64,000 bases of DNA from an uncultured Candidatus Saccharibacteria bacterium (GTDB lineage Bacteria > Patescibacteriota > Minisyncoccia > Phycocordibacterales > CSBR16-193). How positions within the stretch are numbered: the stretch's first letter is position 1; every line of letters begins with the position of its first letter. Location: the NCBI GenBank assembly GCA_964559575.1, contig CAZLGQ010000001.1, forward strand, positions 7,067 through 71,066. The letters run 5' to 3'. Below the pieces are notes generated by a model, which worked only from the letters and a program-made list of their open reading frames with translations, was not told the origin of the DNA and made no database searches. Positions 6,545 through 38,585 of this stretch are shown piece after piece. Both the position numbers and the translations under genes were made by a program.

Positions 6545-6548
6545 ATTT

Positions 6549-10608: not shown

Positions 10609-10698
10609 TTAAAAAATAAGATCACAAATGAATTAACTGTTAAATTTTAACATTATTTTTAAAAAATTCTCAACTTAATAATATTATGCTATTGTAAT

Positions 10699-11955: not shown

Positions 11956-11984
11956 TTTATTAATAAAATATGTTAACATTAATT

Positions 11985-12140: not shown

Positions 12141-12157
12141 TTAAATCAAGAAAACTT

Positions 12158-15997: not shown

Positions 15998-16004
15998 GAA
16001 AAAA

Positions 16005-16235
16005 TTACTGTTGCATCAACTTTTGTATTTCACTTTGATGTTTACGCATCACCTCCATAGTTGCAGCCATTTCACTTTTTCCTTCTTTTGTTTTTTGCTT
16101 TACTTCATTTCCGATCTTTTCAAATAATTCAGGATTTTTTTCTATAAGATTCATTATCATTTCCTGCTGTTCTTCCGGAACACCTTTCATCTTAGTTTTT
16201 AAATATTTTTTAAGAAAATAATTTTTTATTCCCAT
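16005..16235 (-). CDS. Hypothetical small helical protein
   Basis: 76-aa ORF rich in K, E and M (GVPEEQQEMIMNLIEKNPELFEKIG). No family was recognised. Confidence 0.3.
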   Translation of the reverse strand: MGIKNYFLKKYLKTKMKGVPEEQQEMIMNLIEKNPELFEKIGNEVKQKTKEGKSEMAATMEVMRKHQSEIQKLMQQ

Positions 16236-16349
16236 ATATTTTATATTACTATCAATTATTAAAAAGTATTATAACACAAGATATTGAAAGTTATAGATTT
16301 TTAATAAAAATAATAAGTGTGTTAAAATAGCTTACATAATTTTTTAAAA

Positions 16350-17024: not shown

Positions 17025-17028
17025 ATTT

Positions 17029-17871
17029 TTAAACAGGAAACTGTTTAGTTAAAGTCAGTGCTCCATAAATACCACCAATAGCTCCCAGCTCAGCCTTTTT
17101 AATTTCTGGAGTAAATGGAAGTATTTCCGTCATCCTTTCTACATGATAACGTATTCTGTCTATAGGTATAGCTGGATCGCCTACCACCATAGAACCTCCA
17201 ATAACAACCGTATCTGGAGACCAAAATAAAATAGTATTATATATACCAATAGCACTTTCAAATGCCAGTCTTTCCCATGTATCAGGATCGTCTATTTCTA
17301 TTGGATCTAAACCGGTAGCTTTACTTAAAGCAGTACCGGATACATGACCTTCAAAAGTGGAGTTATAAAATGAATTATTTTCTTTAATAAAACTTTTATC
17401 AATTACATGATGTCCGGGTTCAAATCCTACGGTAGCTTTATCTATATACCCATCAACTATTCTAACTCCCCCTACTCCCGTACTTATTGTTATATAAACA
17501 CATATATTACTTCCCTTTCCTGCTCCATGATGAGCTTCTCCTAAACCAACCACATCAGCATCATTTTCAAATTTAAAAGGTGCGGAAAATTTTTCACTAA
17601 AAAAATCTGCAATAGGCTTATTAACCCATCCTTCCATATTAGGAGAATAGACTAACTGATCACGTTCTTTGTTCCAAACCCCAGTAATTCCTCCCCAAAA
17701 ACCCTCAATTTCTCCATCACCAGCTATTTCTTTTACTGTATCAGAGAAAACATTAACACCCTCTTCTGCGGTTTTAGGTGTTTTATTTATTATTGGTTTT
17801 GAAAAGTTCTCTCCATCAAAAGTCGCGCTGATACGCATTTTACTTCCACCTATATCAAATAAAAATTTCAT
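17029..17871 (-). CDS. ROK-family sugar kinase (putative glucokinase)
   Basis: N-terminal FDIGGSKMRISA (ASKHA fold), ISTGVGGVRIVDG and GHHVI ROK-like segments, and a C-terminal GAIGGIYGA. Confidence 0.5.
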   Translation of the reverse strand: MKFLFDIGGSKMRISATFDGENFSKPIINKTPKTAEEGVNVFSDTVKEIAGDGEIEGFWGGITGVWNKERDQLVYSPNMEGWVNKPIADFFSEKFSAPFKFENDADVVGLGEAHHGAGKGSNICVYITISTGVGGVRIVDGYIDKATVGFEPGHHVIDKSFIKENNSFYNSTFEGHVSGTALSKATGLDPIEIDDPDTWERLAFESAIGIYNTILFWSPDTVVIGGSMVVGDPAIPIDRIRYHVERMTEILPFTPEIKKAELGAIGGIYGALTLTKQFPV

Positions 17872-20801: not shown

Positions 20802-22337
20802 ATGCTTAATATGAATAAAAAAGAAAATAATAATGACCTCAATAAAATAGGTTTAACCATCCAAAAATTCAGAGAAAAAAATAACTTAACTCAAAAGGAT
20901 CTAGCAAATAAACTTGAAACCACTCAAAGTGCAGTTGCTAGAATGGAAAGTGGTGATCAAAACATAAGTGCTTCTACTCTTTCTAAAATAAATCAGGCTT
21001 TAGAAATAAATCTTTTTCATATCAATTCCGAATCTCTTACTGTAAAAATAAAAGGAGGAAAAAAATTAAAAGGATCAATTGAAACAAAAACATCAAAAAA
21101 CGGAGCGGTTGGTTTAATGTGTGCCTCAATTTTAAACAAAGGAAAAACCACACTAAAAAACACTCCACGTATTGAAGAAGTTTTTAGAATAGCTGAAGTT
21201 TTAGAAAGCATTGGTTTTAACATTACTTGGAAAAATTCTGACATGACCATAAGCCCTCCTGAAAAAATAAAAATTGATTCAATAAATAAAGAAGCGGCTC
21301 AAAAAACAAGGAGTATAATAATGTTTTTAGGTCCTTTGATCCATAAACTACCTTCTTTCCAATTACCAACTATAGGAGGTTGTAGACTTGGAAAAAGAAA
21401 TACCAGTCCTCATTTTTTTGCGCTAGAAAGTTTAGGAGTATCTTTTAAAAAAGGAAATTGGCAATATAAACCTTCTTCTTCCTTAAAACCCAAAACAGTT
21501 ATACTTTATGAATCCGGAGACACGGTAACTGAAAACGCTATTATGGCCGCCGCAGGCATTCCTACAACTACCACTATAAAATTTGCCTCAGCAAATTACC
21601 AAGTACAGGAAATGTGCTTTTTCTTAAAAAAATTAGGAGTAAAAATAGAAGGAATAGGTACTACTACATTAAAAGTAACAGGCTTAAGTGAAATAAATAA
21701 AAATATTTCATATAATTTAAGTGAGGATCCAATAGAATCAATGTTCTTTTTAGCTACTGCAATAGTAACTAATTCATCAATAACAATAAAACGTTGCCCA
21801 ATAGATTTTTTAGAACTTGAACTTCTCAAATTAAAAAAAATGGGCTTTAAATACAAAAAAAGTGATGTTTATTTTTCAGAAAATCAAGAAACAAAATTAG
21901 TTGATATAACAACCTATCAATCTAAAATGAAAGCCGGAAGAGATACAAAAATAGAACCAAGACCTTATCCCGGTTTAAATATTGATAACCTGCCTTTTTT
22001 TGCAATTATCGCAACTCAAACAGAAGGACAGATCTTAATACACGACTGGGTTTATGAAGAAAGAGCAATATATTATAAAGAACTGGATAAACTTGGAGCT
22101 AAAACTATATTAGCAGATCCTCATCGTATATATATTTCAGGTAAAACTCCTCTTATAGCAAATGAAGTTATCTGCCCTCCGGCACTTAGACCGGCTGCCA
22201 TAATACTAATTGGAATGTTAGCGGCAGATGGTGTATCTGTTTTAAGAAATATATACAGTATAAACAGAGGATATGAAAGTATAATAGAAAGATTAAATGA
22301 TCTAGGGGCTTCTATTGAATTTGAATCAAATATTTAA
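20802..22337 (+). CDS. murA: UDP-N-acetylglucosamine 1-carboxyvinyltransferase with an N-terminal XRE-type HTH domain (fusion)
   Basis: Residues about 15-70 (LTQKDLANKLETTQSAVARMESGDQNISASTLSKINQAL) form an XRE/Cro-type HTH. The remainder aligns end-to-end with MurA (IKGGKKLKGSIETKTSKNGAVGLMCASIL, active-site loop GGCRLGKRNTSPH, C-terminal INRGYESIIERLNDLGASIE). Confidence 0.75.
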   Translation: MLNMNKKENNNDLNKIGLTIQKFREKNNLTQKDLANKLETTQSAVARMESGDQNISASTLSKINQALEINLFHINSESLTVKIKGGKKLKGSIETKTSKNGAVGLMCASILNKGKTTLKNTPRIEEVFRIAEVLESIGFNITWKNSDMTISPPEKIKIDSINKEAAQKTRSIIMFLGPLIHKLPSFQLPTIGGCRLGKRNTSPHFFALESLGVSFKKGNWQYKPSSSLKPKTVILYESGDTVTENAIMAAAGIPTTTTIKFASANYQVQEMCFFLKKLGVKIEGIGTTTLKVTGLSEINKNISYNLSEDPIESMFFLATAIVTNSSITIKRCPIDFLELELLKLKKMGFKYKKSDVYFSENQETKLVDITTYQSKMKAGRDTKIEPRPYPGLNIDNLPFFAIIATQTEGQILIHDWVYEERAIYYKELDKLGAKTILADPHRIYISGKTPLIANEVICPPALRPAAIILIGMLAADGVSVLRNIYSINRGYESIIERLNDLGASIEFESNI

Positions 22338-26923: not shown

Positions 26924-26997
26924 TCTGGGGTAGCTCAATGGTAGAGCTCTCGACTGTTAATCGAGTGGTTGTGGGTTCGAATCCCACCCCCAGAGCC
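26924..26997 (+). tRNA. tRNA-Asn (anticodon GTT)
   Basis: Cloverleaf with acceptor stem TCTGGGG/CCCCAGA, D-arm GCTCAATGGTAGAGC, anticodon stem-loop CTCGA-CTGTTAA-TCGAG (GTT) and T-arm GTGGGTTCGAATCCCAC. A discriminator G and CC follow. The 3' A of CCA is not encoded. Confidence 0.85.
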
Positions 26998-27205
26998 GAC
27001 TAGGATCATTTTTGCAATTTAATAGTGCATTAAATAGGGATAGTATTGAGAACCCTAGCTTATTTTGATTTAGAATTAAATTCGAAAGTAAGAAGCTCAA
27101 AATTTGCTTTTTTACTCTGGTTTCGAACTCATAAACAGTTCCTTAGCTCTCTGTACTAATGTCAATACAGCATTGGCAGTTATCTTTATTTGCTATACTT
27201 ATATT

Positions 27206-27745
27206 ATGAAAAAACTTATATTTTTTGGAGACAGTCTATTAGCGAGAATTAACCCTGATATGATAAAAAAAATTGAGGAGAGTATCGGTAGTATTATTAT
27301 CGATAATCATGCAGTGGGAGGATCAACGACAAATGATGCACTGGAAATAATTGAGTCTGTTTCAAAATTGAAAGCTGACTATGTAGTAATATCTTTAGGG
27401 ACAAATGACATACTTAAAGACAATCTGTCCTGTCCTGAATATCTAGAAAACATGATAAAAATAATTTCTGAATTTTCCGAATCAAAAGTGTTCGTGTGGT
27501 TAACTCCTCCCGCCAACGACATAAACGACCCCGAAGGAACAAAAGAGTTTAATGAAAAGATTGGCCAATATTTCGATGGTCTAAAAAATATATGTAAAGA
27601 TTATAACTTTAACTTTATAGACACTTTTTCAGTCTACAAAGATGCGGTTATGCTTGATAATAAATATCACGAAGAAGATGGTATTCATTTAAGTGTTGAC
27701 GGATATAAACTATTTACTGGTTCATTAGTAAAAACTTTTAAATAA
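27206..27745 (+). CDS. SGNH/GDSL-family hydrolase
   Basis: FFGDSLLA (block I GDS) and ISLGTNDI (block III) motifs. Start moved to the internal ATG at 27206 (MKKLIFFGDSL), since the upstream part of the track ORF is a non-conserved hydrophobic extension. Confidence 0.6.
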   Translation: MKKLIFFGDSLLARINPDMIKKIEESIGSIIIDNHAVGGSTTNDALEIIESVSKLKADYVVISLGTNDILKDNLSCPEYLENMIKIISEFSESKVFVWLTPPANDINDPEGTKEFNEKIGQYFDGLKNICKDYNFNFIDTFSVYKDAVMLDNKYHEEDGIHLSVDGYKLFTGSLVKTFK

Positions 27746-27749
27746 GAGG

Positions 27750-28080
27750 TAGGTTTTGTATTACAACTCCTAGTGAAGAGAGTGAATTTATTTACTATTG
27801 TCAGGATTCGAAAGGTACAGCGATGTTTTTCCGGCAGGAAAAACCGCGAACCAAGGTCGTGAAAATTCAAAAGCGACGGCCTTTGAATTATTCTTAACCG
27901 AATCCTGCCGCTGGAGCAAAAGTCAGTTTAACCCCAATGCGCTAGCGTTGGGGTTTTACTGATCTTTCGCTGAGGTGAAATTTAAAAGACGGAGGCGGTA
28001 TACAAGACGAGCGTAGCGAGGGCCTGTCTAAGAGCTCGGGGTCGCGCTAACACTTAGCCGAAATAAGGAAATTCAATTAT
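27750..28080 (+). ncRNA. GC-rich, highly structured intergenic region: candidate stable ncRNA(s) of unassigned family
   Basis: A roughly 330-bp stretch at about 50% GC sits in a roughly 30% GC genome and has no convincing ORF. It contains a long-range pairing CAGGATTCG (27811..27819) with CGAATCCTG (27899..27907), internal hairpins TTTTTCC-GGCA-GGAAAAA and AATTCAAAAG/CTTTGAATT, and a terminator-like hairpin AACCCCAA-TGCGCTAGCG-TTGGGGTT plus T-run at about 27931..27960. A second GC-rich structured part occupies 27960..28075. Confidence 0.3.
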
Positions 28081-28120
28081 AACCCTTATCATATGTGATA
28101 TTATGTATTAAATTCATATT

Positions 28121-29011
28121 TTGATTAAAAATAAAAAAGCTATGAAAGTATTAATATCTAATACTAAAAAAGTTGAAGAGATCAAAAAGGAAATGCAAAG
28201 ATCTGGACCGGATAAGATCCACGTTCTTTCCGATTTTGATAGAACCCTAACCTACGGAACGACCAACGGAATAAAAACCCCCTCTATTATTTCCATGCTC
28301 AGGGATGGAAAACACTTAACAGATGATTATGCGGACAAAGCTCATTCTTTATTTAATAAATATCATCCACTTGAATCTGATTTGAACATTCCTTTAAGAG
28401 AAAGAAAAGAATTAATGCAAGAATGGTGGAAAAACCATCATGATCTATTGATTAAATCGGGTCTTAGCAAAAACGATCTTGAAGATACTGTTAAAAATGG
28501 ACATGTTAAATTCAGAGAAGGCGTTCCCGAATTTGTTGATCTTTTATATAACAAAAAGATCCCTTTGGTTATTATGTCAGCATGCGGTTGTGGAGAAGCA
28601 GTAAAAATGTTTTTTCAAAAGATCAAAAAAGATCATTCAAATATATTTTATATTATCAATAAATATCATTGGGATAAAAACGGAAAAGCTCTTTCTGCGA
28701 AAGAACCGATAATTCATGCTTTAAATAAAGATGAGACGGTGTTGGAGAATTTCCCGAATGTATATAAACATATAAAAGAAAGAAAAAAAGTTATTCTACT
28801 GGGAGATAGTATTGGAGATATTGATATGATCAAAGGATTTCGTTACGAGAAACTTTTAAAGATCGGGTTTTTAAACAGTGGTTATGAAAGATTAAGAGAA
28901 AAATATTTAGACAGTTTTGATATAGTTTTAGAGGGAGACAAGGATTTTTATTTCATAAATAAGCTCTTTAAAGAAATAATTTTAAAAAAAAATTTTAAAA
29001 TCTATAAATAA
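28121..29011 (+). CDS. HAD-superfamily pyrimidine 5'-nucleotidase (UMPH-1/NT5C3-like)
   Basis: HVLSDFDRTLT (HAD motif I, D-x-D-x-T) in the characteristic NT5C3 context, GDSIGDIDM (motif IV-like), and about 296 aa. Confidence 0.5.
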   Translation: MIKNKKAMKVLISNTKKVEEIKKEMQRSGPDKIHVLSDFDRTLTYGTTNGIKTPSIISMLRDGKHLTDDYADKAHSLFNKYHPLESDLNIPLRERKELMQEWWKNHHDLLIKSGLSKNDLEDTVKNGHVKFREGVPEFVDLLYNKKIPLVIMSACGCGEAVKMFFQKIKKDHSNIFYIINKYHWDKNGKALSAKEPIIHALNKDETVLENFPNVYKHIKERKKVILLGDSIGDIDMIKGFRYEKLLKIGFLNSGYERLREKYLDSFDIVLEGDKDFYFINKLFKEIILKKNFKIYK

Positions 29012-29016
29012 ATTTT

Positions 29017-29455
29017 ATGAAAATATATTTTGCAGGATCAATAAGAGGAGGAAGAGAAGATAGAGAAAAATATTTTAAAATAATAGAATACCTTAAAAAA
29101 CACGGTGAGGTTCTCTCCGAACATATAGGGTCTGAAAACATAGACCACAAAGGAGAAAAGCTCTCTTCAGAAGAAATATTTAACAGGGATGTAGAATGGA
29201 TAAAAAAAGCCGATGTGATCATCGCAGAAGTCTCCACACCCTCTTTAGGTGTTGGCTACGAAATATGCTTTGCAGAAGAATTGAATAAAAAAAATACTCT
29301 GTCTTTTTCAAGAGAACGACAATAAAAAGTTATCTGCGATGATAAGTGGAAATAAAAATATTAAAGTTAAATATTATAAAAATACTAAGGATATTTTTAT
29401 AACACTAAACAAATTTTTATCAAATTTAAATCATAAAAACAGTTCAGACACTTAA
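29017..29455 (+). pseudogene. 2'-deoxynucleoside 5'-phosphate N-hydrolase (DNPH1/Rcl-like), interrupted by a +1 frameshift in an A8 homopolymer
   Basis: Frame 1 (29017..29325) gives MKIYFAGSIRGGREDREKYF...VIIAEVSTPSLGVGYEICFAEELNKK, a strong match to the DNPH1/Rcl signature YFCGSIRGGRED...VVAEVTQPSLGVGYE. It stops early after the A8 run (29287..29294). The next frame continues KILCLFQENDNKKLSAMISG..., matching the DNPH1 continuation KPILCLFRPQSGRVLSAMIRG, and runs to a TAA at 29453..29455. Confidence 0.6.
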
Positions 29456-29545
29456 GTTTTTAAAAACAAAAATAACTTTTCAAACCATAATAATTTTGTT
29501 TATAAAAGTGATATACTTAATATATAAAACTATATAATTTTAATA

Positions 29546-30619
29546 ATGTATAACCGTATAGTAATAAAAGTTGGTACCAAGGTACTCTCCAATGATTTTA
29601 ATAGGCTTGATCTCACCGTTTTAAAACATTTAGTTAAACAGATCAACTTAATAAAAAATAAAGGAACCGAAGTTGTTTTGGTTACATCAGGTGCTGTAGG
29701 AGCCGGTAGAGATTTAATAAACCTTAAAGATATTGAAAAAATAGCAGAAAAACAGATCCTTTCCTCTATAGGTCAGGTTAAATTAATGAATTTTTATTCA
29801 AAATATTTTGCAGAGTATGATCAATTATGTGCTCAAGTATTGGCTACCAAAGAAGACTTTAGAGATAGAAAACATTACTTTAATATGAGAACCTGTTTTA
29901 ATAATCTATTAAAAAGTGGTGTCATTCCGGTAGTAAATGAAAATGATGTTATAGCTACTACAGAACTTCTCTTTACCGATAACGATGAATTAGCAGGTCT
30001 TGTAGCATCCTTACTAAACGCTGATGCAGTAATAATTCTTACAAGTGTTGAAGGTTTTCTAACAGGTGACCCTGAAGATCCCAATTCTAAAATCATTTCT
30101 GAAATTGATTTTAATAAAATTAAAAATATTGAAAAATTTATTTCTAACGAAAAAACTACCTTGGGACGTGGAGGTATGCTTACTAAATTTAATATAGCAA
30201 AAAAACTAACCATTCAGGGTATTACCGTCTTATTTGCTAACGGTAAAAGAAAAAATGTTTTAACTGACATATTTAATAATAAAAAGATCGGAACCAAATT
30301 TACTACTTCAAAAAAATCATCTTCTATCAAAAGACGTCTTGCTTACTCGGAAGGATTAACCAAAGGAATGGTTAAAATAGACAAACAGGCTGTAAACCTT
30401 TTACGTTCTAAAGAAAACATCATCAGCTTATTGCCTATAGGGGTAATAGATATTCATGGTGATTTTTATAAAGGTGATATTATTGAAATCGTAAGTGAAA
30501 AAAAAGAAAAAATAGGTTTTGGGATAACTCAGTACGATTCTCAAAAAGCCAAAGATCTAATAAAAACTAAAAATAAAAAACCGATCATTCATTATAACTA
30601 TATGTTCATTAATATTTAG
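29546..30619 (+). CDS. proB: Glutamate 5-kinase with C-terminal PUA domain
   Basis: IVIKVGTKVLS, VLVTSGAVGAG and NENDV amino-acid-kinase motifs, plus a C-terminal PUA-like region (MVKIDKQAVNLL...GDIIEIVSEK). Confidence 0.85.
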   Translation: MYNRIVIKVGTKVLSNDFNRLDLTVLKHLVKQINLIKNKGTEVVLVTSGAVGAGRDLINLKDIEKIAEKQILSSIGQVKLMNFYSKYFAEYDQLCAQVLATKEDFRDRKHYFNMRTCFNNLLKSGVIPVVNENDVIATTELLFTDNDELAGLVASLLNADAVIILTSVEGFLTGDPEDPNSKIISEIDFNKIKNIEKFISNEKTTLGRGGMLTKFNIAKKLTIQGITVLFANGKRKNVLTDIFNNKKIGTKFTTSKKSSSIKRRLAYSEGLTKGMVKIDKQAVNLLRSKENIISLLPIGVIDIHGDFYKGDIIEIVSEKKEKIGFGITQYDSQKAKDLIKTKNKKPIIHYNYMFINI

Positions 30620-30660
30620 AATATATCTAAATATTAAATTAATTTTATTTAAAAAATTAA

Positions 30661-30682
30661 AGGGGAGTTTAAAACCTCCCCT
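30661..30682 (-). terminator. Rho-independent terminator hairpin (acts mainly on the minus strand for the Zn-ribbon gene pair)
   Basis: AGGGGAG-TTTAAAAC-CTCCCCT perfect 7-bp GC-rich stem. On the minus strand it is followed by a T-rich run, and it lies about 29 nt downstream of the stop of the 30711..30974 ORF. Confidence 0.45.
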
Positions 30683-30710
30683 TTATGATCGTTCCGATCG
30701 ACATAACTAA

Positions 30711-30974
30711 TCAGTCCCTCCAAGGAGAGTCCTTTTCTAAGGCCTCCTTTTGGCGCTTTGCTTGCTCATTCAAGCACAAAGCACAACTGATTTTCACGTC
30801 TATTGGAACGCGTTGGTCGTCGGTTGCCCCGAGGACAACTCCACACTTCTCGCATTTCAAAGTGCGTTTTTGCCCGTTCAGGCAATCAGAACAAATGACC
30901 GAGATGTTTTCTGGTACTCGCTCATCTGCTGTGGCGGCGAAAATACCGTCGCAGCTAATGCATACCAAAATCAC
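30711..30974 (-). CDS. Small double zinc-ribbon protein (internally duplicated CxxC...CxxC module), in a GC-rich island
   Basis: GTG start preceded by AGGAGG. Two homologous modules (ADERVPENISVICSDCLNGQKR and TDDQRVPIDVKISCALCLNEQAKR) each carry a CxxC-x17-CxxC spacing. Their nucleotide differences are mostly synonymous, which indicates purifying selection. Codon usage is GC-rich and unlike the host. Confidence 0.45.
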   Translation of the reverse strand: MILVCISCDGIFAATADERVPENISVICSDCLNGQKRTLKCEKCGVVLGATDDQRVPIDVKISCALCLNEQAKRQKEALEKDSPWRD

Positions 30975-31028
30975 CTTAAACCCCTCCTAGGTTATAGACA
31001 ACGACCCTAAAGCCGAGGTCTATCTGGG

Positions 31029-31217
31029 TTAGTAGCGTCCTCCTACGACACTATCCATTTGAGACACGCAATGGTGCCCCTTTTCATCCTGATTCAGTGC
31101 AAACACCACCTTCACAGAGGTACCTTGCAACTGACGGCATTTGTGGCAGACTATGATCTTAACGACCCAATAGTCACGTGAATCATAAACCCTGCCACAC
31201 TGAGCGCATCTAACCAT
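31029..31217 (-). CDS. Small zinc-ribbon protein (CxxC...CxxC), in a GC-rich island
   Basis: 62 aa: MVRCAQCGRVYDSRDYWVVKIIVCHKCRQLQG.... An SD-like GGATAAGG lies upstream. Codon usage is GC-rich. The gene sits directly upstream of and on the same strand as the 30711..30974 ORF. Confidence 0.4.
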   Translation of the reverse strand: MVRCAQCGRVYDSRDYWVVKIIVCHKCRQLQGTSVKVVFALNQDEKGHHCVSQMDSVVGGRY

Positions 31218-31396
31218 AACCTTATCCTTTCCTGGTTATCAAGGAACAACACGAGGGAAACATTCCCCCCGATCAGTTAAACAATTAATCTAACCAATCG
31301 GGGAAAATGATTTCCTCAACTAAAATTTTTGCCATTAAACCAGATTTAATAACAAATGTAAATACTAACGACTATATTAATAATAATATAGAAAAA

Positions 31397-32083
31397 TTAA
31401 AAATATTTATTTATAAAATCTTCAGCCTTTTTTAAATCAATTGGAGTAGTTATTTGTAACCAAAAACGACTAAATACCGGAGTAATCGTTTTTTTGTTTG
31501 CCAATTGAAGAAGAGTTTGAGGTAACCCCCACTCTTCTTTACCACTTAACTTTTGCTGAGTACAAGAAAATATTTGATCAGTCATAGAATAAAGTCCGGT
31601 ATTTAAATAACCGGTAACACCACCATGATCATTACCTTCTTTTATTTCTTTTATTCGATTAAATTCATCAAAAACTACTTTTCCACCAGAGTATAAATTA
31701 TTAACTTTAGATATCCCAATAGAAAAAGAATGTTCTGTACAAGACCTTATATCAGAAGGATGATAAATATCATCACCCATCATAACTAAAAAATGTTCAT
31801 TTAAAATATCCTTAGCTTGCCACAATGCATCAGCAGTACCTAAAAAATCAGACTGTTCTACATAACGCAATGGTATACCTTTATAAACTTTCCCTAAATA
31901 TTGATAAATATCAGACTTTCTGTAACCAACTACTAAAATTACTTCTTTTATTTTTTCCGGTAAAAAGTCTAATTTATACTCTAACAACGTTTTATTTTTG
32001 ATCTTTAAAAGTGGTTTAGGAGTTAACTCAGTATGATTTCCCATTCTAATTCCTCTACCAGCTGCTAGAATAACTACTTGCAT
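31397..32083 (-). CDS. Sugar-phosphate nucleotidyltransferase (NTP_transferase family)
   Basis: MQVVILAAGRGIRMG...TPKPLL is the canonical G-x-G-x-R nucleotidyltransferase N-terminus, so the start was moved to that Met (32083). The track ORF has 8 extra N-terminal codons. Confidence 0.6.
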   Translation of the reverse strand: MQVVILAAGRGIRMGNHTELTPKPLLKIKNKTLLEYKLDFLPEKIKEVILVVGYRKSDIYQYLGKVYKGIPLRYVEQSDFLGTADALWQAKDILNEHFLVMMGDDIYHPSDIRSCTEHSFSIGISKVNNLYSGGKVVFDEFNRIKEIKEGNDHGGVTGYLNTGLYSMTDQIFSCTQQKLSGKEEWGLPQTLLQLANKKTITPVFSRFWLQITTPIDLKKAEDFINKYF

Positions 32084-32163
32084 AAATAATAAGTAAAATA
32101 ATATCACAATATTTTTTTAAAAAAAATATTGTGATAATATTACTTTGTAATATTTAAATAAAA

Positions 32164-32814
32164 ATGAAACTTATACCGGATAAAGAAATAATTAAAATAC
32201 CTATAAAAGATAACAAAGAAAAACTTGTTCATGTTAGAAAATACGTTCCAAATATAGTTATCAGACCAGGTTTATATATAAAAAAAGAAGGAAATAGTAC
32301 CTGCAAAAAAGCCTGTTTAATAAGAGAAAGTGTTGGAAAACGTTTAAAGGTAGCTCAAGATTTACTACCTAAAGAATACAGGTTAATGCTTAGATGTGGA
32401 TACAGACCCATATCACTACAAAAAAAACACTATATAGAAGAACGTAATCGCTTAAAAAAGAAAAATCCATCCTGGAGTAAAGAAAAACTAAACACAGAAA
32501 TGGATATGCGTATTGCTCCATTGTATATAGTACCTCCGCACCCTACAGGTAGCGCAGTTGATATAACCATAATTGATAATAAATACCACCAACTTGATAT
32601 GGGTACTAAATTAGGAGAATTTAACAAAGAAAAAACATTTACTTATTCCAAAAATATTTCTAACCTAGCAAAAGAAAATAGAAAACTTTTAATAAATGTT
32701 ATGGAAAAAGCAGGTTTTGTTAATTATCCAACCGAATGGTGGCATTGGTCGTATGGAGATAGATACTGGGCTGCCGTAAAAAAAGAAAAAATTTCTATAT
32801 ACGATAAGATATAA
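32164..32814 (+). CDS. D-alanyl-D-alanine dipeptidase (M15 family, VanX/DdpX-like)
   Basis: Zn-binding motifs PHPTGSAVDITIID (SxHxxGxAxD) and PTEWWHWSYGD (ExxH). Confidence 0.7.
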   Translation: MKLIPDKEIIKIPIKDNKEKLVHVRKYVPNIVIRPGLYIKKEGNSTCKKACLIRESVGKRLKVAQDLLPKEYRLMLRCGYRPISLQKKHYIEERNRLKKKNPSWSKEKLNTEMDMRIAPLYIVPPHPTGSAVDITIIDNKYHQLDMGTKLGEFNKEKTFTYSKNISNLAKENRKLLINVMEKAGFVNYPTEWWHWSYGDRYWAAVKKEKISIYDKI

Positions 32815-32873
32815 CAAAAGAGCGTCCTAGCTTTTAACTAAAACGCTCCTTTAGCCTTTTTAGGGCTTTTGAG

Positions 32874-34118
32874 TCAAACAAAGTCGAGTCTTTTCCGTAC
32901 CTCTTTGACAACCGCTTTCGCTTCTTCTCGAGAATTGATGGACAGTCCGGTAACATCAATGCCACCGTGATAGAGCACACCGGGATTGGTTATGACCGCA
33001 AAAGGTTCTTGAGTCGATGGAACCAAAATCTCTTTCAGTTCACCAAACAGCTCTTTAAACCCTAAGCTTTTCCCGGTTGAAATGTGTTCATGCCAAAAGT
33101 GGTAACCGAAAGATCCGGGGTTACGGATCTTCGCCAATCGTTTTGACATCTCATAGATAAAAACTATTGCGCCTTTCCTGGGATTGAAATCAGTCCAGTA
33201 GACGTTTCCAGTTTCATCTATAAGAATATCACAACAGAAATAACCTTTGGCACCGGATCTCTGAAGATAAGGAACAAGTTTGGTTTCCAGATCTGTTCTG
33301 ATCCTACTCTCTATCTCTCTGGTAAGCCTAGTTGGAAAGGCTGTACCGGAATAAGACAGATTAGTGGATAGTTGATCAAAGATACCTATATCCAAAAACT
33401 TCCCATCTTCAGTGATCTCCCAATGAACACAGACTTCATCAACGATCTTGACCATCTGCTCTACGATGAAGGGGCTGCACATCCCTTCAACTGTTGGCAT
33501 TTTTGCCACAAGATCTTCATAAGATGAGATCTGATGCAATCCACCCAGATCTACACCACCCGTACCTCTTGAGGATTTCAGAAGAAAACCATTTCCATTC
33601 TTACCTGTAAGGAATGACTTGGTTACCTTGAGAAGTTCTTCCGGATCCTTACCACCCACCCAAGGGGCGGTTTTTAATCCCAGTTCTTCACAAAGCAACT
33701 TAAAGTTATACTTACAGGCAAAAGGAATGGATACCTCAAAGTTACAGTAAGGAGGAATCCCCAGAATTGAAGAAAGATAACGTTCACTTTCTTCTATCCA
33801 GAAAAACTCCAATCGGGCAGATCGACCATTAATGGACCCCAGAATCTCATCCTGAACTTCTTGCTTGGAGATTACCAAATCGGCTAAAGTAAGATCTCTA
33901 TCAAACGGACCAGCTACGATCATTCTCGGTAATGTAAAACCGAGATCCTGCCAATAGGCAAGATAATCAGAATCGATCGGTTTGGTAGTGACCACTACAT
34001 GACCATCTCCAACTTGGCACAGTCCGCCACGTTGATCAAAATCTTGCTCCATCTCAATACCTCGAAAGAGACTATTGCTCTGAGTCTCGATCATAACACG
34101 AGTTTTTTCGCCTTTCAT
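32874..34118 (-). CDS. ATP-grasp family ligase (substrate unknown), GC-rich and compositionally foreign
   Basis: C-terminal ATP-grasp core LLKSSRGTGGVDL, FIVEQMVKIVDEVCVHWEI and YFCCDILIDETGNVYWTDFNPRKG (the D-x-N catalytic loop). Local GC is about 45% against about 30% in neighbouring genes. Confidence 0.6.
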   Translation of the reverse strand: MKGEKTRVMIETQSNSLFRGIEMEQDFDQRGGLCQVGDGHVVVTTKPIDSDYLAYWQDLGFTLPRMIVAGPFDRDLTLADLVISKQEVQDEILGSINGRSARLEFFWIEESERYLSSILGIPPYCNFEVSIPFACKYNFKLLCEELGLKTAPWVGGKDPEELLKVTKSFLTGKNGNGFLLKSSRGTGGVDLGGLHQISSYEDLVAKMPTVEGMCSPFIVEQMVKIVDEVCVHWEITEDGKFLDIGIFDQLSTNLSYSGTAFPTRLTREIESRIRTDLETKLVPYLQRSGAKGYFCCDILIDETGNVYWTDFNPRKGAIVFIYEMSKRLAKIRNPGSFGYHFWHEHISTGKSLGFKELFGELKEILVPSTQEPFAVITNPGVLYHGGIDVTGLSINSREEAKAVVKEVRKRLDFV

Positions 34119-34174
34119 GTCTATCCTCCTCTTTCTTCAATGTTTGACCTGAAAAGAACAACAACGGCCTTATT

Positions 34175-34223
34175 CCAAGACCGTAGATATACATAAGTTA
34201 TTTATATGTATCTACGATCTTGG
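34175..34223. promoter_or_regulatory. Long near-perfect palindrome (about 20-bp arms) between the native M20 gene and the GC-rich ATP-grasp gene
   Basis: CCAAGACCGTAGATATACATA-agttattt-ATATGTATCTACGATCTTGG. It lies 57 nt upstream of the ATP-grasp start codon and has no T-run, so it is more operator-like than terminator-like. Confidence 0.3.
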
Positions 34224-34278
34224 ATATTGACATTTTATAAATATTATTTCTTAAACATACAAACTTTATTTAATTAAG

Positions 34279-35370
34279 TCAATAACCTTTATTGGTATCA
34301 AAATTCAAAAGATCAATTAATGACTCATATAAAAAATAAACAGAATCCATATCAACCCATTCTTCATTTTGATGCGCACCTCCTCCATCAGGTCTCCAAA
34401 GTACTGCAGGAATTCCGTGTTCTGTAAAAAAAACAGCATCACTGGTTCCATTTTCATGTTTAAAGATCATTTTTTTTCTTAATTTCTTTTGTAAAACCTT
34501 TTTCAATACCTGAAGCCATAATTCATTTTCATTAGTAAAAAATAGATCATTTTCTGAAACAACTTCCACCTCTCCTTTTTTCCCTACAAACTTATTCAAT
34601 TCTTTTTTAATATTCTTAAGATCCTCATTTTTAGTAAAACGTATATCAAAATAACCTTCAGCATATTCTGGTATCTGATTTAAACTATTATCAGTAGAAA
34701 CCTTGGTTAAAACCACACTGGTCTTCCATTGATCTTTAAAAGTAGGTCCGGGGAACATTTCAGAAAGTTTATTTTGTAAGACCAATAACTTAGGAATTGG
34801 ATTTTCTCCTTTCCAAACTTGAGAAGAATGACAACTCTTACCCGGTAAAGTAACCTTAAACTGAATAAAACCTTTCTGTTTATTAACTATTTGATTTCCT
34901 CCACCACCATCTGCAATAAAAGCAAAATCAGCATGGTAACCTTTATCTTTTAATAAAGCATAAGTTCCATATCCACTTTTCTCTTCATCGGAAGTAATCA
35001 AAATTGCTATTTCTTTTTTCCCTCCCCTTTTTTTATATTCAGTTGCTGCATATAGACAAGCCACTAAGCCGGCTTTCATATCATAAGCACCACGACCATA
35101 AAGTTTTCCGGCTTGTTCTTTAGGCTTGAATAATTCTTCAGATCCTTTTACAACATCAATGTGTCCGGAGAAAATTATATCTACCTTTTTTTTATTTGTA
35201 GTTGAAAAGACCAAAGCCGGATGACCTTTTAAATTATACTTAGAGATCTTAAAGACACCTTTAAATTTTTTTTCTAAGAGATCCAAGCATTCTTTTTGTT
35301 TTTCTATATTCTCTTCTGTTGATCTTATTGAAATAAGCTTTTTAGATAGATCTAATATTTGTTTTTTCAT
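34279..35370 (-). CDS. M20-family metallopeptidase (DapE/ArgE-like), native AT-rich composition
   Basis: SGHIDVV and GRGAYDMKAG (M20 metal-binding/catalytic motifs), FIADGGGG, and 363 aa. Confidence 0.7.
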   Translation of the reverse strand: MKKQILDLSKKLISIRSTEENIEKQKECLDLLEKKFKGVFKISKYNLKGHPALVFSTTNKKKVDIIFSGHIDVVKGSEELFKPKEQAGKLYGRGAYDMKAGLVACLYAATEYKKRGGKKEIAILITSDEEKSGYGTYALLKDKGYHADFAFIADGGGGNQIVNKQKGFIQFKVTLPGKSCHSSQVWKGENPIPKLLVLQNKLSEMFPGPTFKDQWKTSVVLTKVSTDNSLNQIPEYAEGYFDIRFTKNEDLKNIKKELNKFVGKKGEVEVVSENDLFFTNENELWLQVLKKVLQKKLRKKMIFKHENGTSDAVFFTEHGIPAVLWRPDGGGAHQNEEWVDMDSVYFLYESLIDLLNFDTNKGY

Positions 35371-35395
35371 AATTTATTTACATAAAAACTAAAAA

Positions 35396-35422
35396 TAAAA
35401 CGACCTCTTGAGGTCGTTTTAA
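35396..35422. terminator. Bidirectional intrinsic terminator
   Basis: AAAA-CGACCTC-TTG-GAGGTCG-TTTT: a perfect 7-bp GC-rich stem flanked by an A-run and a T-run. Confidence 0.5.
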
Positions 35423-35577
35423 TATTTTATTTATTCTTGATTTTATATTATTTAGAATAAACACCATTAAACAACCTCAAAAGTCTTGAAGTTACGACGG
35501 TCGTTTCTACGAACAGTATTTATTCTATTTAACATATAATAAAATTTAATAAAAAAAATTAAAAAAGTCAATAAAAA

Positions 35578-35610
35578 AGGGGTACCGGCAACTAACGTCA
35601 CCGATACCCC
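35578..35610 (-). terminator. Intrinsic terminator of the GC-rich ArgE-like/ArgA-like operon (minus strand)
   Basis: GGGGTACCGG-caactaacgtca-CCGATACCCC hairpin lies immediately after the stop at 35618. It is followed on the minus strand by TTTTTTATT. Confidence 0.45.
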
Positions 35611-35617
35611 AATGGAC

Positions 35618-36613
35618 TTACAGTTCCTTCACCCAAACTTCTTTAGAACCTTGGTTCAAATCAAACATTCGTTCTTTTTTGAAACCAAAGTTTAAAAAGT
35701 CAGGCAAAATACCCACTAAGGGCGGTGCTTGTTCAGCACAAAGGTACAACTGCTTTTTCCGGAGTTTCATGGACTTATTGACCGCATACTTGATCAATGG
35801 AGTCAAAACCTCCGAAACGGCTAACTCAGAAGAGTAGCCAAGGTAACTCATTTTCATCTTCCCGTTGACTTCAGGGTTTAGCATCAGAGCTCCATAGGGA
35901 TATCCGTCAATTGCGAAAACGACGAATTTATCGATATTCTCAGCAATGAATGACTCAAAAACACAGCCATTTAGCAAAGACTTGAGAATCCGAGTGACTT
36001 CCGGAATATCAGACCTCGTTGCAGATCGAACCTTCTTATATGAAGATCCGGCTCTGTAGATCATTGTTCCGGAACCTTTCCCTGTTAGAAACTCTTCCAA
36101 AAAAGCTTCCCTGCGACAGATGTTGGTAAAGTGAACACGAGAGATTCCTATGTCACAAAAACCAACCGCATACTCAAGACACGTCCTCATCAAGCCATTG
36201 ACTACATTCTCTTCCTCTAGAAGTTCTTGTGCTTCCATATCCGTCATTTCACTAACAAGCTTCCCCTTATTGAAGATGCCGTCAGTATTACAGAGAAAGA
36301 AGAACTTGGAAGCTTTGAGAACCTCCACCAAGGTAAAGAGATCTTTCTCTTCAACTACTTCGTGGTACTTCACTCCACGTTCCTGAAGCGTATTTTCCAA
36401 AAAAGGAATATCCACGCTGTTACAAAGAAAATGGAGATCGACCCCTAAGCTATCAAGAAGATGAATGTCTTCAATAATAGCTTCAAAGTTTGATTCCTTC
36501 TTCCTTGGAAAAGCACTGCAGACAAGAACACGCTTCCCATTCCAACGGATCAGGCTACTCAACATCTCTCTGGTAGGACGTCCATCCATGACCATTTCCT
36601 CCTCACTTTCCAC
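35618..36613 (-). CDS. Amino-acid N-acetyltransferase-like protein: amino-acid-kinase fold plus C-terminal GNAT (short ArgA/NAGS-like architecture), GC-rich
   Basis: TDGIFNKGKLVSEMTDMEAQELLEE...VNGLMRTCLEYAVGFCDIGISRVHFTN...LTGKGSGTMI matches the C-terminal half of the AAK fold (TDVdGV...GGM.pKl.aa..A...Gv..v.I..g...GT.I). The C-terminal roughly 120 aa (LGYSSELAVSE...) resembles GNAT. GC is about 45%. Confidence 0.45.
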   Translation of the reverse strand: MESEEEMVMDGRPTREMLSSLIRWNGKRVLVCSAFPRKKESNFEAIIEDIHLLDSLGVDLHFLCNSVDIPFLENTLQERGVKYHEVVEEKDLFTLVEVLKASKFFFLCNTDGIFNKGKLVSEMTDMEAQELLEEENVVNGLMRTCLEYAVGFCDIGISRVHFTNICRREAFLEEFLTGKGSGTMIYRAGSSYKKVRSATRSDIPEVTRILKSLLNGCVFESFIAENIDKFVVFAIDGYPYGALMLNPEVNGKMKMSYLGYSSELAVSEVLTPLIKYAVNKSMKLRKKQLYLCAEQAPPLVGILPDFLNFGFKKERMFDLNQGSKEVWVKEL

Positions 36614-37739
36614 ACATGTCTTGTATCAAACGGACATATTGTGAAACAACTTTGTCCGAAAAATACTTTTCATGCATGAATTCATTCGGTTTATGAGCCT
36701 GTTGAATGGATCCGGGTCCGTATATCACTGATTCAATACCGGCGGAGTTAAAAACACCCCCTTCAGTATTAAAAGAAGTTGACGCCGATGTCTTACCGGA
36801 TACCTTTTCAACGCTCTTAACAAGCGACGATCCAGTGTCCGTTTCCATCGGAGGAGTTGGAGTTCTTCCAAAACTCACCTTAACTTCCAAACCGTCATCG
36901 ATACCCTCGTTAACGGAAATGAAGTCAGAAAAAGCTCGAAAGACATCATCAACATCCTGACCTGGGATTGGTCTGATATCAAGCTCAATACGACAGTAGT
37001 CCGCTATGATGTTCTTAGCGGAGTTATCTCCGGTCGTAACGACACCAACATTGAGAGTTGGATAAGTCGGGTCAAACCGAGGATCAGAAATGACCTCTAG
37101 ATGCCTCTTGAAGTCATTTATCTTCCGAAGAACCAAAGGGAGAGCTGTTTGCACAACGTTCAATCCCTCATTGGGACGCGAACTGTGTACACGCTTACCC
37201 TTAAGTTCCACCTTGACATACATATACCCCTTGTGGAGAATGTACGACTCAAGCTCGGTAGGCTCTCCGATCAGAACCGTATCTGCGAATTTTCCTCTGT
37301 CGTTGATGAGCTTCTTAGCACCAACACAACCAACCTCTTCATCACTCGTAAAAACAAGTCCGAAAGGCTTTTTGAGTTTGTGCTCTTGGATGTATGAAGC
37401 GGCCTTCATGGCTACTGCCAGAAAACCTTTCATGTCGCAAACCCCTCTGCCGAAGTACTTATTCCCCTTCTTGGTAAGAAAAAGAGGATCAGTACTCCAA
37501 TTCCTGATATCGTAAGGAACGGTATCCATATGTCCTGACAAGGCGAAGTGAGTATCATGACCGCCCTTCTTGGCGATCATGTTTACCTTCTTTACGCCCT
37601 TTTGGATATAAGGGTACTGTTCAATAACGAAACCTTCGTCTTCCAAAAACTCACTGATGAAATCAGCGATGCTTCCGGTTTCCTTATTACTTACAGTGTC
37701 AAAGGAAATGAGTTTCTCAGCGATCTCGATCGTCTCCAT
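36603..37739 (-). CDS. M20-family deacylase (acetylornithine deacetylase ArgE / DapE-like), GC-rich
   Basis: LSGHMDTVPYD and GRGVCDMKGFLAVAM motifs. Start moved to Met24 (METIEIAEKLISFDTVS), which has a strong GGAGAGGA SD. Overlaps the downstream AAK-GNAT gene by 11 nt. Confidence 0.7.
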   Translation of the reverse strand: METIEIAEKLISFDTVSNKETGSIADFISEFLEDEGFVIEQYPYIQKGVKKVNMIAKKGGHDTHFALSGHMDTVPYDIRNWSTDPLFLTKKGNKYFGRGVCDMKGFLAVAMKAASYIQEHKLKKPFGLVFTSDEEVGCVGAKKLINDRGKFADTVLIGEPTELESYILHKGYMYVKVELKGKRVHSSRPNEGLNVVQTALPLVLRKINDFKRHLEVISDPRFDPTYPTLNVGVVTTGDNSAKNIIADYCRIELDIRPIPGQDVDDVFRAFSDFISVNEGIDDGLEVKVSFGRTPTPPMETDTGSSLVKSVEKVSGKTSASTSFNTEGGVFNSAGIESVIYGPGSIQQAHKPNEFMHEKYFSDKVVSQYVRLIQDMCGK

Positions 37740-37856
37740 GGCTATCCTCTCCTCTACTCTCGGGCCAGAATTTTTATTTGACAAAGAACTAACTATAAGT
37801 CCAATCAAAAAAATACCACTTTATAGAAAAAAAAGTCAAAACAATTTTACTAAAAA

Positions 37857-38585
37857 TTACTTTAAATAAGCTTTTATTAAAACCTCTTCTCCAGCAATTG
37901 AAATAGTATCAAATAAAGATAATGGAGAAATATCTTCTTTTTTTATAGCAATAGGTAACTCGGTACAACCAAGAACCACAGCTTCTGCTCCTTCAGAAAC
38001 CATTCTATCTATTATTTTTTTTAACAAGATAACCTCCTTCTCTCCATTAGAACCAGACATTACGGTTAATATTATATTATTTATTATCTCTTGCTCTTTA
38101 TCTGTAGATAAAACAGGTTCAATTCCTTTACTTATCGCCATATTTTCATACAGCTTTAAATTTTTAGTACTTTCAGAATTTAATATTGCCACTTTTTTAA
38201 AACCTTCATTCAAAACCTGATCAATGGTTTTTTCAATTAAATTAACTATAGGAACATTAATTGAATTTTGCATATCTTCATAAAAATAATAAACAGTATT
38301 ACAAGCAATTACTATAAAATCACTACCGGCATTTTCCAATTTTTTTAAACCTTCTATAAGTTGTTTTTTAACCAGATCTTTATCAACAAAACCGGTTTCA
38401 TCAAAACCTTTTAATGGTAAATTATATATAAGAATCGGTGGATAATCACTGTCCTGTTGAGCACCATAAACATCTTGCGCTATCTTAACTATTCTTTGAT
38501 AAATACAGACACTTGCCTCGGGACCAATACCACCTAAAACACCTAAAGTCTTACCATTAACTTTATACTCAAACTTTTTGGACAT
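37857..38585 (-). CDS. Asp/Glu racemase family protein (putative aspartate racemase)
   Basis: GVLGGIGPEAS near the N-terminus and VVLGCTELP near the C-terminus (the two catalytic-Cys regions of the Asp/Glu/hydantoin racemase fold). Length is 242 aa. Confidence 0.65.
   Translation of the reverse strand: MSKKFEYKVNGKTLGVLGGIGPEASVCIYQRIVKIAQDVYGAQQDSDYPPILIYNLPLKGFDETGFVDKDLVKKQLIEGLKKLENAGSDFIVIACNTVYYFYEDMQNSINVPIVNLIEKTIDQVLNEGFKKVAILNSESTKNLKLYENMAISKGIEPVLSTDKEQEIINNIILTVMSGSNGEKEVILLKKIIDRMVSEGAEAVVLGCTELPIAIKKEDISPLSLFDTISIAGEEVLIKAYLK

Follow-up and report, generated by a model that had tools for sequence, protein, structure and literature searches.

A Patescibacteria-typical gene cluster with compositionally atypical members, probably shaped by cassette exchange, on a segment found in several genomic contexts

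How do three GC-rich genes come to lie on either side of an AT-rich one in the genome of a reduced bacterium, and what could the four of them do there? The question is raised by a locus in a stretch of 64,000 nucleotides (hereafter the window) from an uncultured Candidatus Saccharibacteria bacterium (contig CAZLGQ010000001.1 of assembly GCA_964559575.1), where the genes of an ATP-grasp ligase, an ArgA-related AAK-GNAT protein and an ArgE-like M20 deacylase share one strand with a second M20 hydrolase, here called M20a. A preliminary description of this DNA had read the GC-rich genes as a horizontal acquisition. We show that these three genes and the AT-rich M20a belong to one lineage-typical cluster of Patescibacteria, of the Paceibacterota type; their foreign look probably reflects the exchange of single cassettes with GC-richer relatives from the same clade, and not a new pathway received from a distant donor. 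All four open reading frames (ORFs) were recovered where the preliminary description had placed them, and its M20 coordinates 36603..37739 agree with the start codon that we assign to the ArgE-like gene. GC3 denotes the GC content at third codon positions.

32874-34118, minus strand: ATP-grasp ligase; GC 0.430, GC3 0.393
34279-35370, minus strand: M20a; GC 0.310, GC3 0.198
35618-36613, minus strand: ORF of the AAK-GNAT protein; GC 0.423, GC3 0.452
36603-37808, minus strand: ORF of the ArgE-like M20 deacylase; GC 0.441, GC3 0.458

The compositional mosaic is real and strong. Flanking genes have a GC content of 0.28-0.31 and a GC3 of 0.14-0.21, and the reference set, which consists of the 53 other ORFs of at least 150 amino acids (aa) in the window, has a mean GC3 of 0.208 (standard deviation 0.046, maximum 0.368). 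The three GC-rich genes exceed that mean by 4.0 (ATP-grasp), 5.3 (AAK-GNAT) and 5.4 (ArgE-like) standard deviations; with composition recomputed in this way, the reported contrast between GC-rich ORFs (0.42-0.44) and AT-rich flanks (0.28-0.31) holds, and GC content is far from uniform. The elevated GC3 runs the full length of each of the three genes, the GC step falls within about 60 nucleotides (nt) of the ORF ends, and codon choice is shifted in every class: AAG stands at 0.60 in the GC-rich genes versus 0.17 in the others, ATC at 0.45 versus 0.12 and TTA at 0.08 versus 0.46, with CGG, ACG, TCG and GAG also among the shifted codons. GC-rich ends are absent from M20a, which is bordered on both sides by AT-rich intergenic DNA. 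None of the housekeeping genes of the window (CysRS, LeuRS, TrpRS/TyrRS, MreB) is GC-rich. Relative synonymous codon usage (RSCU) of the GC-rich genes is intermediate, correlating with that of the rest of the window at r = 0.53. Among themselves, the ArgE-like and AAK-GNAT genes (r = 0.58) look like a single block, and the ATP-grasp gene is less similar to both (r = 0.44 with ArgE, 0.27 with AAK-GNAT); the amino-acid composition of the ligase fits a home GC3 of about 0.49. The next highest GC3 in the window, 0.37, belongs to a serpin gene (54233-55465, plus strand), which may be acquired too.

The same set of genes is found across the phylum. The best relatives of all three GC-rich proteins are patescibacterial, with identities of 55-59% for the ATP-grasp ligase, 48% for AAK-GNAT and 72% for the ArgE-like protein ('Candidatus Pacebacteria', Paceibacterota), and a distant donor is excluded on this ground. 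Among 28 non-redundant ATP-grasp loci, numbered here with the prefix L, the gene is accompanied by M20a in 15, by ArgRS (within 6.4 kb) in 13, by an epimerase in 12, by AAK-GNAT in 10 and by the ArgE-like gene in nine. M20a lies directly beside the ATP-grasp gene in L007, L011, L028, L037 and L039 and within 2.4-3.6 kb of it in many others; because it is such a recurrent partner, it is taken to be part of the system. The preliminary description had treated the AT-rich M20 gene as a native separator between foreign blocks: native it is by composition, a mere spacer it is not. Two layouts can be distinguished. Across the phylum the order is ArgRS, ThrC-like pyridoxal phosphate (PLP) enzyme, ATP-grasp, MR_MLE epimerase and M20a, with the ArgE-like/AAK-GNAT pair nearby. 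In the subclade of the window it is (GNAT), epimerase, M20a, ATP-grasp and ArgRS, followed by a racemase or by the ArgE-like/AAK-GNAT pair; L037 and L039 carry GNAT, MR_MLE and M20a immediately upstream of the ATP-grasp gene, and L011 has the gene order of the window itself (AAK-GNAT, M20a, ATP-grasp). Syntenic orthologs in the lineage, which the preliminary description had regarded as an argument for vertical inheritance, thus exist as far as the presence of the genes is concerned.

The locus as a whole has moved, and recently. It lies within a segment, S, whose left end coincides with a transfer RNA (tRNA) gene.

26924..26997, plus strand: tRNA-Asn(GTT), found by ARAGORN and Rfam; its 3' end is the left boundary of segment S
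26993..37936: segment S, 10.9 kb, containing the whole locus; 99.9-100% identical (blastn) in contigs with other flanks

The genomic contexts of segment S number at least two or three (L001, L003 and L043 compared with the window). Positions 1-9176 of L003 are identical to S over 9.1 kb and then run into a diverged tRNA-Asn, a junction that is repeated in a JGI assembly (L043); the tRNA-Asn of L003/L043 is 89% identical to that of the window, and all nine mismatches lie at or below 26992. Past this tRNA, L003 continues with syntenic PBP and S30AE genes whose proteins are 44-52% identical to those of the window and whose GC3 is 0.43-0.53. A metagenome-assembled genome (MAG) contig from NCBI, L001/L044, joins S (positions 6184-17126) to other GC-rich DNA on both sides, with ParB-like, zinc-ribbon, GSDH and PspC genes of 45-53% GC, and its right junction lies 80 nt inside the 3' end of the racemase gene. 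The junctions of the window type are confirmed by L002 and L045, and at least eight contigs of soda-lake sediment metagenomes carry the exact proteins. The AT-rich genes of S match the remaining window in RSCU (r = 0.97); being native to this type of genome, they imply that S moved from the window genome type into a GC-richer one. The genome whose GC-rich DNA borders S in L003 and L001 was considered as donor of the atypical genes and rejected, as the RSCU correlation is only 0.11-0.24, while the two flanks correlate with each other at r = 0.68. Segment S resembles tRNA-flanked genomic islands in being bounded by the 3' end of a tRNA gene, in occurring in several contexts and in holding atypical genes; it differs from them in lacking integrase, direct repeats and mobility genes and in being mostly of native composition. 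Att-like repeats at the ends of S and a circular form of the L001/L044 contig were looked for, and neither was found.

The unit of exchange can be read from the block boundaries, which carry strong secondary structures.

32815-32853, minus strand: terminator-like hairpin of 18 pairs, directly after the ATP-grasp stop codon
34174-34196 and 34202-34224: arms of a palindrome in the spacer between M20a and ATP-grasp, 23 nt each, 87% complementary; predicted to form a stable hairpin in the transcript
35371-35617, minus strand: structured spacer with two terminator-like hairpins and a long central hairpin
35421-35396, minus strand: terminator-like hairpin
35610-35579, minus strand: terminator-like hairpin of 14 bp (8 GC) with a T-run

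The palindrome and the tandem terminators announced by the preliminary description are real, and the palindrome arms are 23 nt long; compared with shuffled sequences, the spacer 34119-34278 folds with z = -5.0 and the spacer 35371-35617 with z = -7.5. The idea that the palindrome belongs to a repeat family or marks a recombination site was rejected, since no further copy exists in the window beyond its own two arms and no conserved counterpart is present in five related M20a-ATP-grasp spacers. Between both terminators of the second spacer, at 35422-35578 on the minus strand, there is a promoter-like TTGACT-17-TAAATT (35571-35543) together with a long stable hairpin; this element may represent a small RNA or the leader of M20a, a gene without an obvious Shine-Dalgarno (SD) site. 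A fourth GC-rich patch, absent from the preliminary description, lies further left on the same strand as the cluster.

30686-31260 (approximately): GC-rich patch, GC 0.43-0.55, with two small zinc-ribbon ORFs
30658-30685, minus strand: GC-rich terminator that follows the 87-aa zinc-ribbon ORF
30711..30974, minus strand: zinc-ribbon ORF of 87 aa, GC 0.49, two zinc-ribbon repeats (internal CxxC...CxxC duplication), SD AGGAGG
31029..31217, minus strand: GC-rich zinc-ribbon ORF of 62 aa, CxxC...CxxC, own SD

Neither zinc-ribbon ORF has a Pfam match, and no homologs were found in 30 related loci. The idea that the GC-rich patches are RNA genes was discarded: Rfam at gathering scores reports tRNA-Asn only, and a permissive scan of 30400-31600 gave sub-threshold matches only. 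Every GC-rich block is closed by its own GC-rich terminator. Because of these terminators, and because M20a has no GC-rich ends, replacement or insertion of whole cassettes is favoured over homologous recombination anchored in M20a, which the AT-rich intergenic DNA on either side of that gene also contradicts.

We propose that lineage-typical genes were replaced by, or inserted from, alleles of unsampled GC-richer relatives in the same clade, that the unit of exchange would have been a single gene cassette ending in its own GC-rich terminator, and that the native M20a would have been left in place. Exchange is favoured over vertical descent because the families have no intrinsic GC bias and the locus demonstrably moves. 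The first of these points comes from other genomes, where GC3 minus local background averages -0.004 (ATP-grasp, n = 19), +0.010 (ArgE) and +0.014 (AAK-GNAT); an intrinsic offset of these families is rejected by this test. Two loci show comparable mosaics. L012 is a mirror image, with an AT-rich ATP-grasp gene (558-1793, GC3 0.20) at the contig end and other genes mostly at GC3 0.43-0.55. L015 holds a contiguous GC-rich block (4407-11209, GC 0.44-0.53) of AAK-GNAT, ArgE-like, ArgRS, PLP enzyme and ATP-grasp genes, flanked by AT-rich proA/proB/proC and epimerase/M20a (GC 0.35), so that the essential ArgRS itself is atypical there. The horizontal acquisition postulated by the preliminary description survives in this narrower sense: exchange best explains the contrast, and what is foreign is the allele or cassette, not the capability.

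A number of observations weigh against the exchange of cassettes. A search of 5.8 billion cluster representatives brought up no donor allele, and the best matches sit in genomes of 34-40% GC without compositional contrast. The three GC-rich genes lack one clear common codon signature (r 0.27-0.58) and do not match the codon usage of the L001 or L003 flanks, and the amino-acid compositions of the ArgE-like and AAK-GNAT proteins are typical of AT-rich homes although their GC3 is high. The ATP-grasp, M20a and ArgE trees place the window in the same clade each time, and the identities of its ATP-grasp and M20a proteins to 13 genomes fall on the regression of the other pairs (z from -1.6 to +0.2 in 12 of the 13; L019 is the outlier); such congruence of trees and divergence fits vertical inheritance as well as exchange within the clade. 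Milder heterogeneity of the same polarity exists inside the cluster in several other lineages. As to mobility, the annotated ORFs of S include no integrase or mobility gene, its ends share no direct repeat longer than 9 nt, and the L001 context is a single MAG contig. Finally, the sister clusters have ArgRS, epimerase and PLP genes that are missing from the window.

One alternative is that there was no transfer: the genes have always been in the lineage and their higher GC was kept in situ by codon or messenger RNA selection, expression-linked bias or local heterogeneity of mutation and repair. The congruent trees and the similar divergence of GC-rich and AT-rich members, the missing donor, the AT-home-like amino-acid composition of two of the proteins and the tendency of ATP-grasp, ArgRS and ArgE to be GC-richer than epimerase and M20a in several lineages all suit it. 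It is nonetheless unlikely, as the families show no GC3 offset from their local background elsewhere and the polarity is opposite in L012. Moreover, all codon classes are shifted, unlike under translational selection, the housekeeping genes of the window are not GC-rich, and two unrelated zinc-ribbon ORFs nearby are equally anomalous. Taken as a whole, a lineage-typical, arginine-linked cluster with exchanged cassettes is the explanation that we prefer, with moderate confidence.

What the cluster does has to be approached through its proteins, whose families (ATP-grasp ligase, ArgA-related AAK-GNAT, ArgE-type M20) had been called correctly from the outset. The ligase (414 aa, SD AGGAGG) is an ATP-grasp carboxylate-amine ligase of the BesA/PGM1 structural type. 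It stays below the Pfam cutoffs (PreAtp-grasp 23.3 bits versus 27.5, ATP-grasp 16.5 bits versus 27), and its membership of this type rests on structure and motifs: an AlphaFold2 (AF2) model from a 38-sequence alignment reaches a predicted local distance difference test (pLDDT) score of 95, and both a Pre-ATP-grasp domain and an ATP-grasp catalytic fold are present. In the 38 family members, the window protein included, there is no variation at K181, E220, D297, D310, P313, R314, K315 and G316 and next to none at N312, so that the catalytic Lys, acidic and D-x-N-P-R residues are kept; catalytic roles have been described for Lys residues, an acidic residue and an ExN-type Mg site of ATP-grasp enzymes (PMC4431377). 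The nearest structural relatives are natural-product enzymes, namely BesA (L-propargylglycine-L-glutamate ligase), PGM1 (pheganomycin peptide ligase) and the Streptomyces ligase 8YND, with LdmS more distant; the window ligase is only 16-18% identical to them. According to its structure entry, BesA, the closest of these relatives, makes a gamma-glutamyl amino acid, and the acyl donor of PGM1 is a guanidino acid (PMC8939145). BesA and PGM1 sit in actinomycete natural-product clusters, whereas the family of the window ligase is found in reduced Patescibacteria beside ArgRS, M20 and the ArgA-derived protein. This family is rare and patchy, with 68 matches among the 5.8 billion cluster representatives, 58 representatives at E <= 1e-30 among 1.84 billion and 26 loci among 185,579 species genomes. 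Most members are from Patescibacteria; a few come from Desulfobacterota, Spirochaetales and Planctomycetota, some of them nested among Patescibacteria in a neighbour-joining tree.

Two resemblances turned out to be misleading. Homology to the arginine synthetase ArcE was rejected, because ArcE is a P-loop-type protein and not an ATP-grasp enzyme. The LysW/LysX-LysZ-LysK amino-group-carrier pathway has a superficially equal parts list (ATP-grasp, AAK-fold protein, M20 hydrolases, small zinc-ribbon ORFs); the window ATP-grasp, however, is not of the RimK/LysX type, and the zinc-ribbon ORFs end in ...SPWRD and ...VGGRY, without the acidic C-terminal tail of a LysW-like carrier and without homologs in the related loci.

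The AAK-GNAT protein combines the C-lobe of the AAK fold with a divergent GNAT domain. Its ORF is open to 36613, and the start is most likely ATG 36589, giving 323 aa (35618..36589, minus strand); its SD, GAGGAGG, overlaps the stop codon of the ArgE-like gene, which implies translational coupling of the pair. ArgA models are its best family matches, with their NCBIfam cutoffs missed by far (PRK05279 77.3 bits versus 344, TIGR01890 66.2 versus 202.85). The order of domains is that of ArgA; in alignments with PDB entries the protein matches the NAGK 2BTY at residues 95-278 only, the C-terminal two-thirds, and the start of its GNAT domain aligns to Neisseria gonorrhoeae 2R8V. About 90 residues of the AAK N-lobe are missing, as is the KxGG motif, which leaves a large gap against the full-length ArgA of L030. 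The acetyl-CoA pyrophosphate loop of GNAT enzymes has the motif Q/R-x-x-G-x-G/A; in the alignment of relatives the window reads GYSSELAVSEV--L where L030 has HEDYGIGRRL and L020 SQGIGELL. The N-lobe part, the KxGG motif and the G-x-G loop are lost across the whole Patescibacteria clade of the alignment. What has been conserved is a block in the AAK C-lobe, GV.RVH...E.LT..G.GTMIY, which we take, as a lead only, to help form the arginine site in NAGK/NAGS enzymes that are arginine-sensitive. An AF2 model from two sequences reached a pLDDT of 56.8 (below 50 in the GNAT half) and was not used for fold searches. From its sequence, the protein is derived from ArgA without being an ArgA, and it is probably not an acetyltransferase. 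It shares with ArgA/NAGS the domain order and an ArgE-type partner, and in the planctomycete locus L030 a full-length ArgA stands at the equivalent position; it differs in the loss of N-lobe, KxGG and acetyl-CoA loop and in scoring 77 bits against 344. The acetylation-deacetylation logic of self-protection suggested by the preliminary description is weakened accordingly by this clade-wide loss.

The ArgE-type deacylase (36603..37739, minus strand, 378 aa, GC-rich) starts at ATG 37739, with the SD GGAGAGGA upstream. It passes the equivalog cutoff of acetylornithine deacetylase (TIGR01892, 320.3 bits versus 297.7), contains PF01546 and PF07687 and can be aligned over its full length with E. coli ArgE 7RSF (E = 1.7e-51); inspected by eye in the HMMER alignment, the metal-ligand motifs GHxDTV, DMKG, DEE, GEPT and AH are in register with 7RSF. 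It differs from E. coli ArgE in always being coupled to the truncated ArgA-derived protein, with no arginine-biosynthesis genes seen alongside. M20a (34279..35370, minus strand, 363 aa) is assigned by Pfam and NCBIfam to the DapE/ArgE family of M20 hydrolases, and its nearest PDB entry is 2RB7, an M20/M25/M40-family peptidase without a specific name.

Several features tie the ATP-grasp family to arginine: its ArgRS neighbours, its ArgA and AstA neighbours and a fusion to arginine deiminase. Both planctomycete loci have an AstA-like acyltransferase directly after the ATP-grasp gene and ArgRS at 4.4 kb, and in L030 the full-length ArgA lies immediately upstream, with an M20 hydrolase close by. 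The ArgRS near the ATP-grasp gene of L030 (13477-15714) is 745 aa long with an inserted tRNA_bind domain. On the 136-kb contig L050, a single gene (10001-12391, protein P0204) encodes a 796-aa fusion of a full ATP-grasp family member with a full-length arginine-deiminase-like domain ending in GGSHCLT, adjoined by LD-carboxypeptidase and TruB. We lean towards an arginine-linked function of the family on these grounds. The preliminary description had found the locus not obviously an arginine pathway; this stands in so far as no other arg genes are present in the 64 kb, and it does not for the ATP-grasp family, which is strongly arginine-linked. The immediate neighbours of the cluster in the window have to be considered as well.

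29546..30619, plus strand: glutamate 5-kinase ProB with PUA domain, AT-rich; in L015, too, proB lies beside the AAK-GNAT/ArgE pair
32164..32814, plus strand: VanX-type D-Ala-D-Ala dipeptidase (M15), PF01427 E = 1.2e-23, GC3 0.20; convergent with the ATP-grasp gene
37857..38585, minus strand: Asp/Glu-type amino-acid racemase, AT-rich; its final 80 nt belong to segment S, and a racemase also lies by the cluster in L037

An ordinary remnant of arginine biosynthesis, in which ArgA makes N-acetylglutamate, ArgE deacetylates N-acetylornithine and ATP-grasp and M20a are unrelated neighbours, could account for the equivalog score of the ArgE-like protein and its alignment with E. coli ArgE, for the ArgA models as top matches of AAK-GNAT and for proB nearby (proA and proC in L015). 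We regard it as improbable, because AAK-GNAT fails the ArgA cutoffs and lacks N-lobe, KxGG and GxG loop, because neither the 64 kb nor the related loci examined contain any of argB, argC, argD, argF, argG and argH, and because the pair co-occurs with ATP-grasp in at least ten loci. Equally improbable is a cell-wall module in which the ligase extends a peptidoglycan precursor by a D-amino acid or dipeptide, and racemase, VanX and M20 supply or trim it. D-aspartate ligase, which works together with aspartate racemase, offers a precedent; racemase and VanX flank the cluster here, a racemase accompanies it in L037, dipeptide epimerases occur in 12 loci, and LD-carboxypeptidase lies beside the fusion gene. 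The counts across loci nevertheless favour ArgRS (13 of 28) over racemase (two of 28) and VanX (one of 28) as neighbour of the ATP-grasp gene, and the deiminase fusion and the ArgA/AstA neighbours would be left unexplained.

The antimetabolite link drawn by the preliminary description would make the locus a foreign small-peptide pathway with N-acetylation for self-protection, and the ArgRS of its relatives a resistance copy. Aminoacyl-tRNA synthetase genes in biosynthetic clusters can indeed be self-resistance genes, the relatives BesA, PGM1 and 8YND are natural-product enzymes, and composition and taxonomic distribution are atypical and patchy. Yet the cluster is kept across many reduced Patescibacteria beside what is probably their sole ArgRS, the nearest relatives are all within the phylum, the acetyltransferase has no acetyl-CoA loop, and the window holds no transporter, non-ribosomal peptide synthetase or polyketide synthase, or tailoring genes. 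With the arginine-linked neighbours, and with the deiminase fusion indicating primary arginine metabolism, the balance tips to primary metabolism of the arginine/glutamate family, and the antimetabolite reading is very doubtful. An artefact of assembly or binning, with GC-rich pieces of another organism stitched in, can practically be dismissed: the sequence is metagenome-derived and L001 and L003 join the segment to other flanks, but the mosaic is reproduced at 99.9-100% in at least eight contigs from NCBI, ENA, JGI and Logan assemblies of several runs, with boundaries at ORF ends and SD sites and terminators intact.

For the exchanged, arginine-linked cluster a chemical route can be sketched. 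The ATP-grasp ligase would form an acyl phosphate on a carboxylate of the arginine/glutamate family and couple an amine to it, which would yield a dipeptide-like amide such as a gamma-glutamyl-X as with BesA or a guanidino-acid amide as with PGM1. M20a may hydrolyse or recycle such amides, in sister genomes together with a dipeptide epimerase and a small GNAT, and the ArgE-type enzyme may strip the N-acyl group from an ornithine- or arginine-type substrate. The ArgA-derived protein would be a regulatory, possibly arginine-binding, non-catalytic partner rather than an acetyltransferase. Overall, the cluster would serve to salvage or interconvert amino acids of the arginine/glutamate family in an organism without their de novo synthesis; this specific chemistry, by way of a dipeptide-like or N-acyl intermediate, is put forward tentatively. 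The epimerase of the sister clusters resembles solved dipeptide epimerases, and the arrangement in L037 and L039 is like known modules of dipeptide epimerase or N-acyl racemase with GNAT and M20 (BC0371; the L-Ala-D/L-Glu epimerases YkfB and YcjG). In the window the epimerase and the small GNAT are absent, either lost or never there, and the described modules have no ATP-grasp ligase. We presume that BC0371 has a GNAT and an M20 gene in its genome context. The sister clusters recall acylate-racemise-deacylate routes such as that around BC0371, an MLE-subgroup enzyme of B. cereus that is an N-succinyl-Arg racemase (PMC2948282).

Outside the cluster, the window looks like a typical reduced Patescibacteria genome. 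Two of its proteins have unusual domain arrangements: the LeuRS (1821-5270, minus strand, 1149 aa) contains internal Pfam matches to Ham1-like (residues 242-336) and NUDIX (585-701) domains, and a MurA/EPSP-synthase-family protein (20802-22337, plus strand) carries an N-terminal HTH_3 DNA-binding domain.

The enzyme superfamilies and gene transfer marked by GC content are already familiar, and current views are not overturned. New are the cluster itself, the degenerate ArgA derivative, the fusion of ATP-grasp with arginine deiminase and the direct evidence of very recent exchange between Patescibacteria. An identical 10.9-kb segment between flanking orthologs that are only 44-52% identical is a clean case of such exchange between distant Patescibacteria in one soda-lake community, and it appears that exchange can replace single genes within an operon. 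Patescibacteria are held to live on scavenged building blocks, and the supply of their arginine-family amino acids is poorly known; the cluster is a concrete, assayable candidate for salvage or interconversion in that family, with a ligase family that has no characterised member. We speculate, as a rather improbable possibility, that Patescibacteria (and a few Planctomycetota and Desulfobacterota) have an undescribed arginine-linked pathway built around the rare ATP-grasp enzyme, in which a gamma-glutamyl- or N-acyl-type amide of an amino acid of the arginine/citrulline/ornithine family, made by the BesA/PGM1-type ligase, would be recycled by dedicated M20 hydrolases and, in some genomes, by a dipeptide epimerase, under the control of an ArgA-derived pseudo-enzyme reduced to its arginine-sensing half, and whose single-gene cassettes may be traded among co-resident episymbionts of very different base composition.

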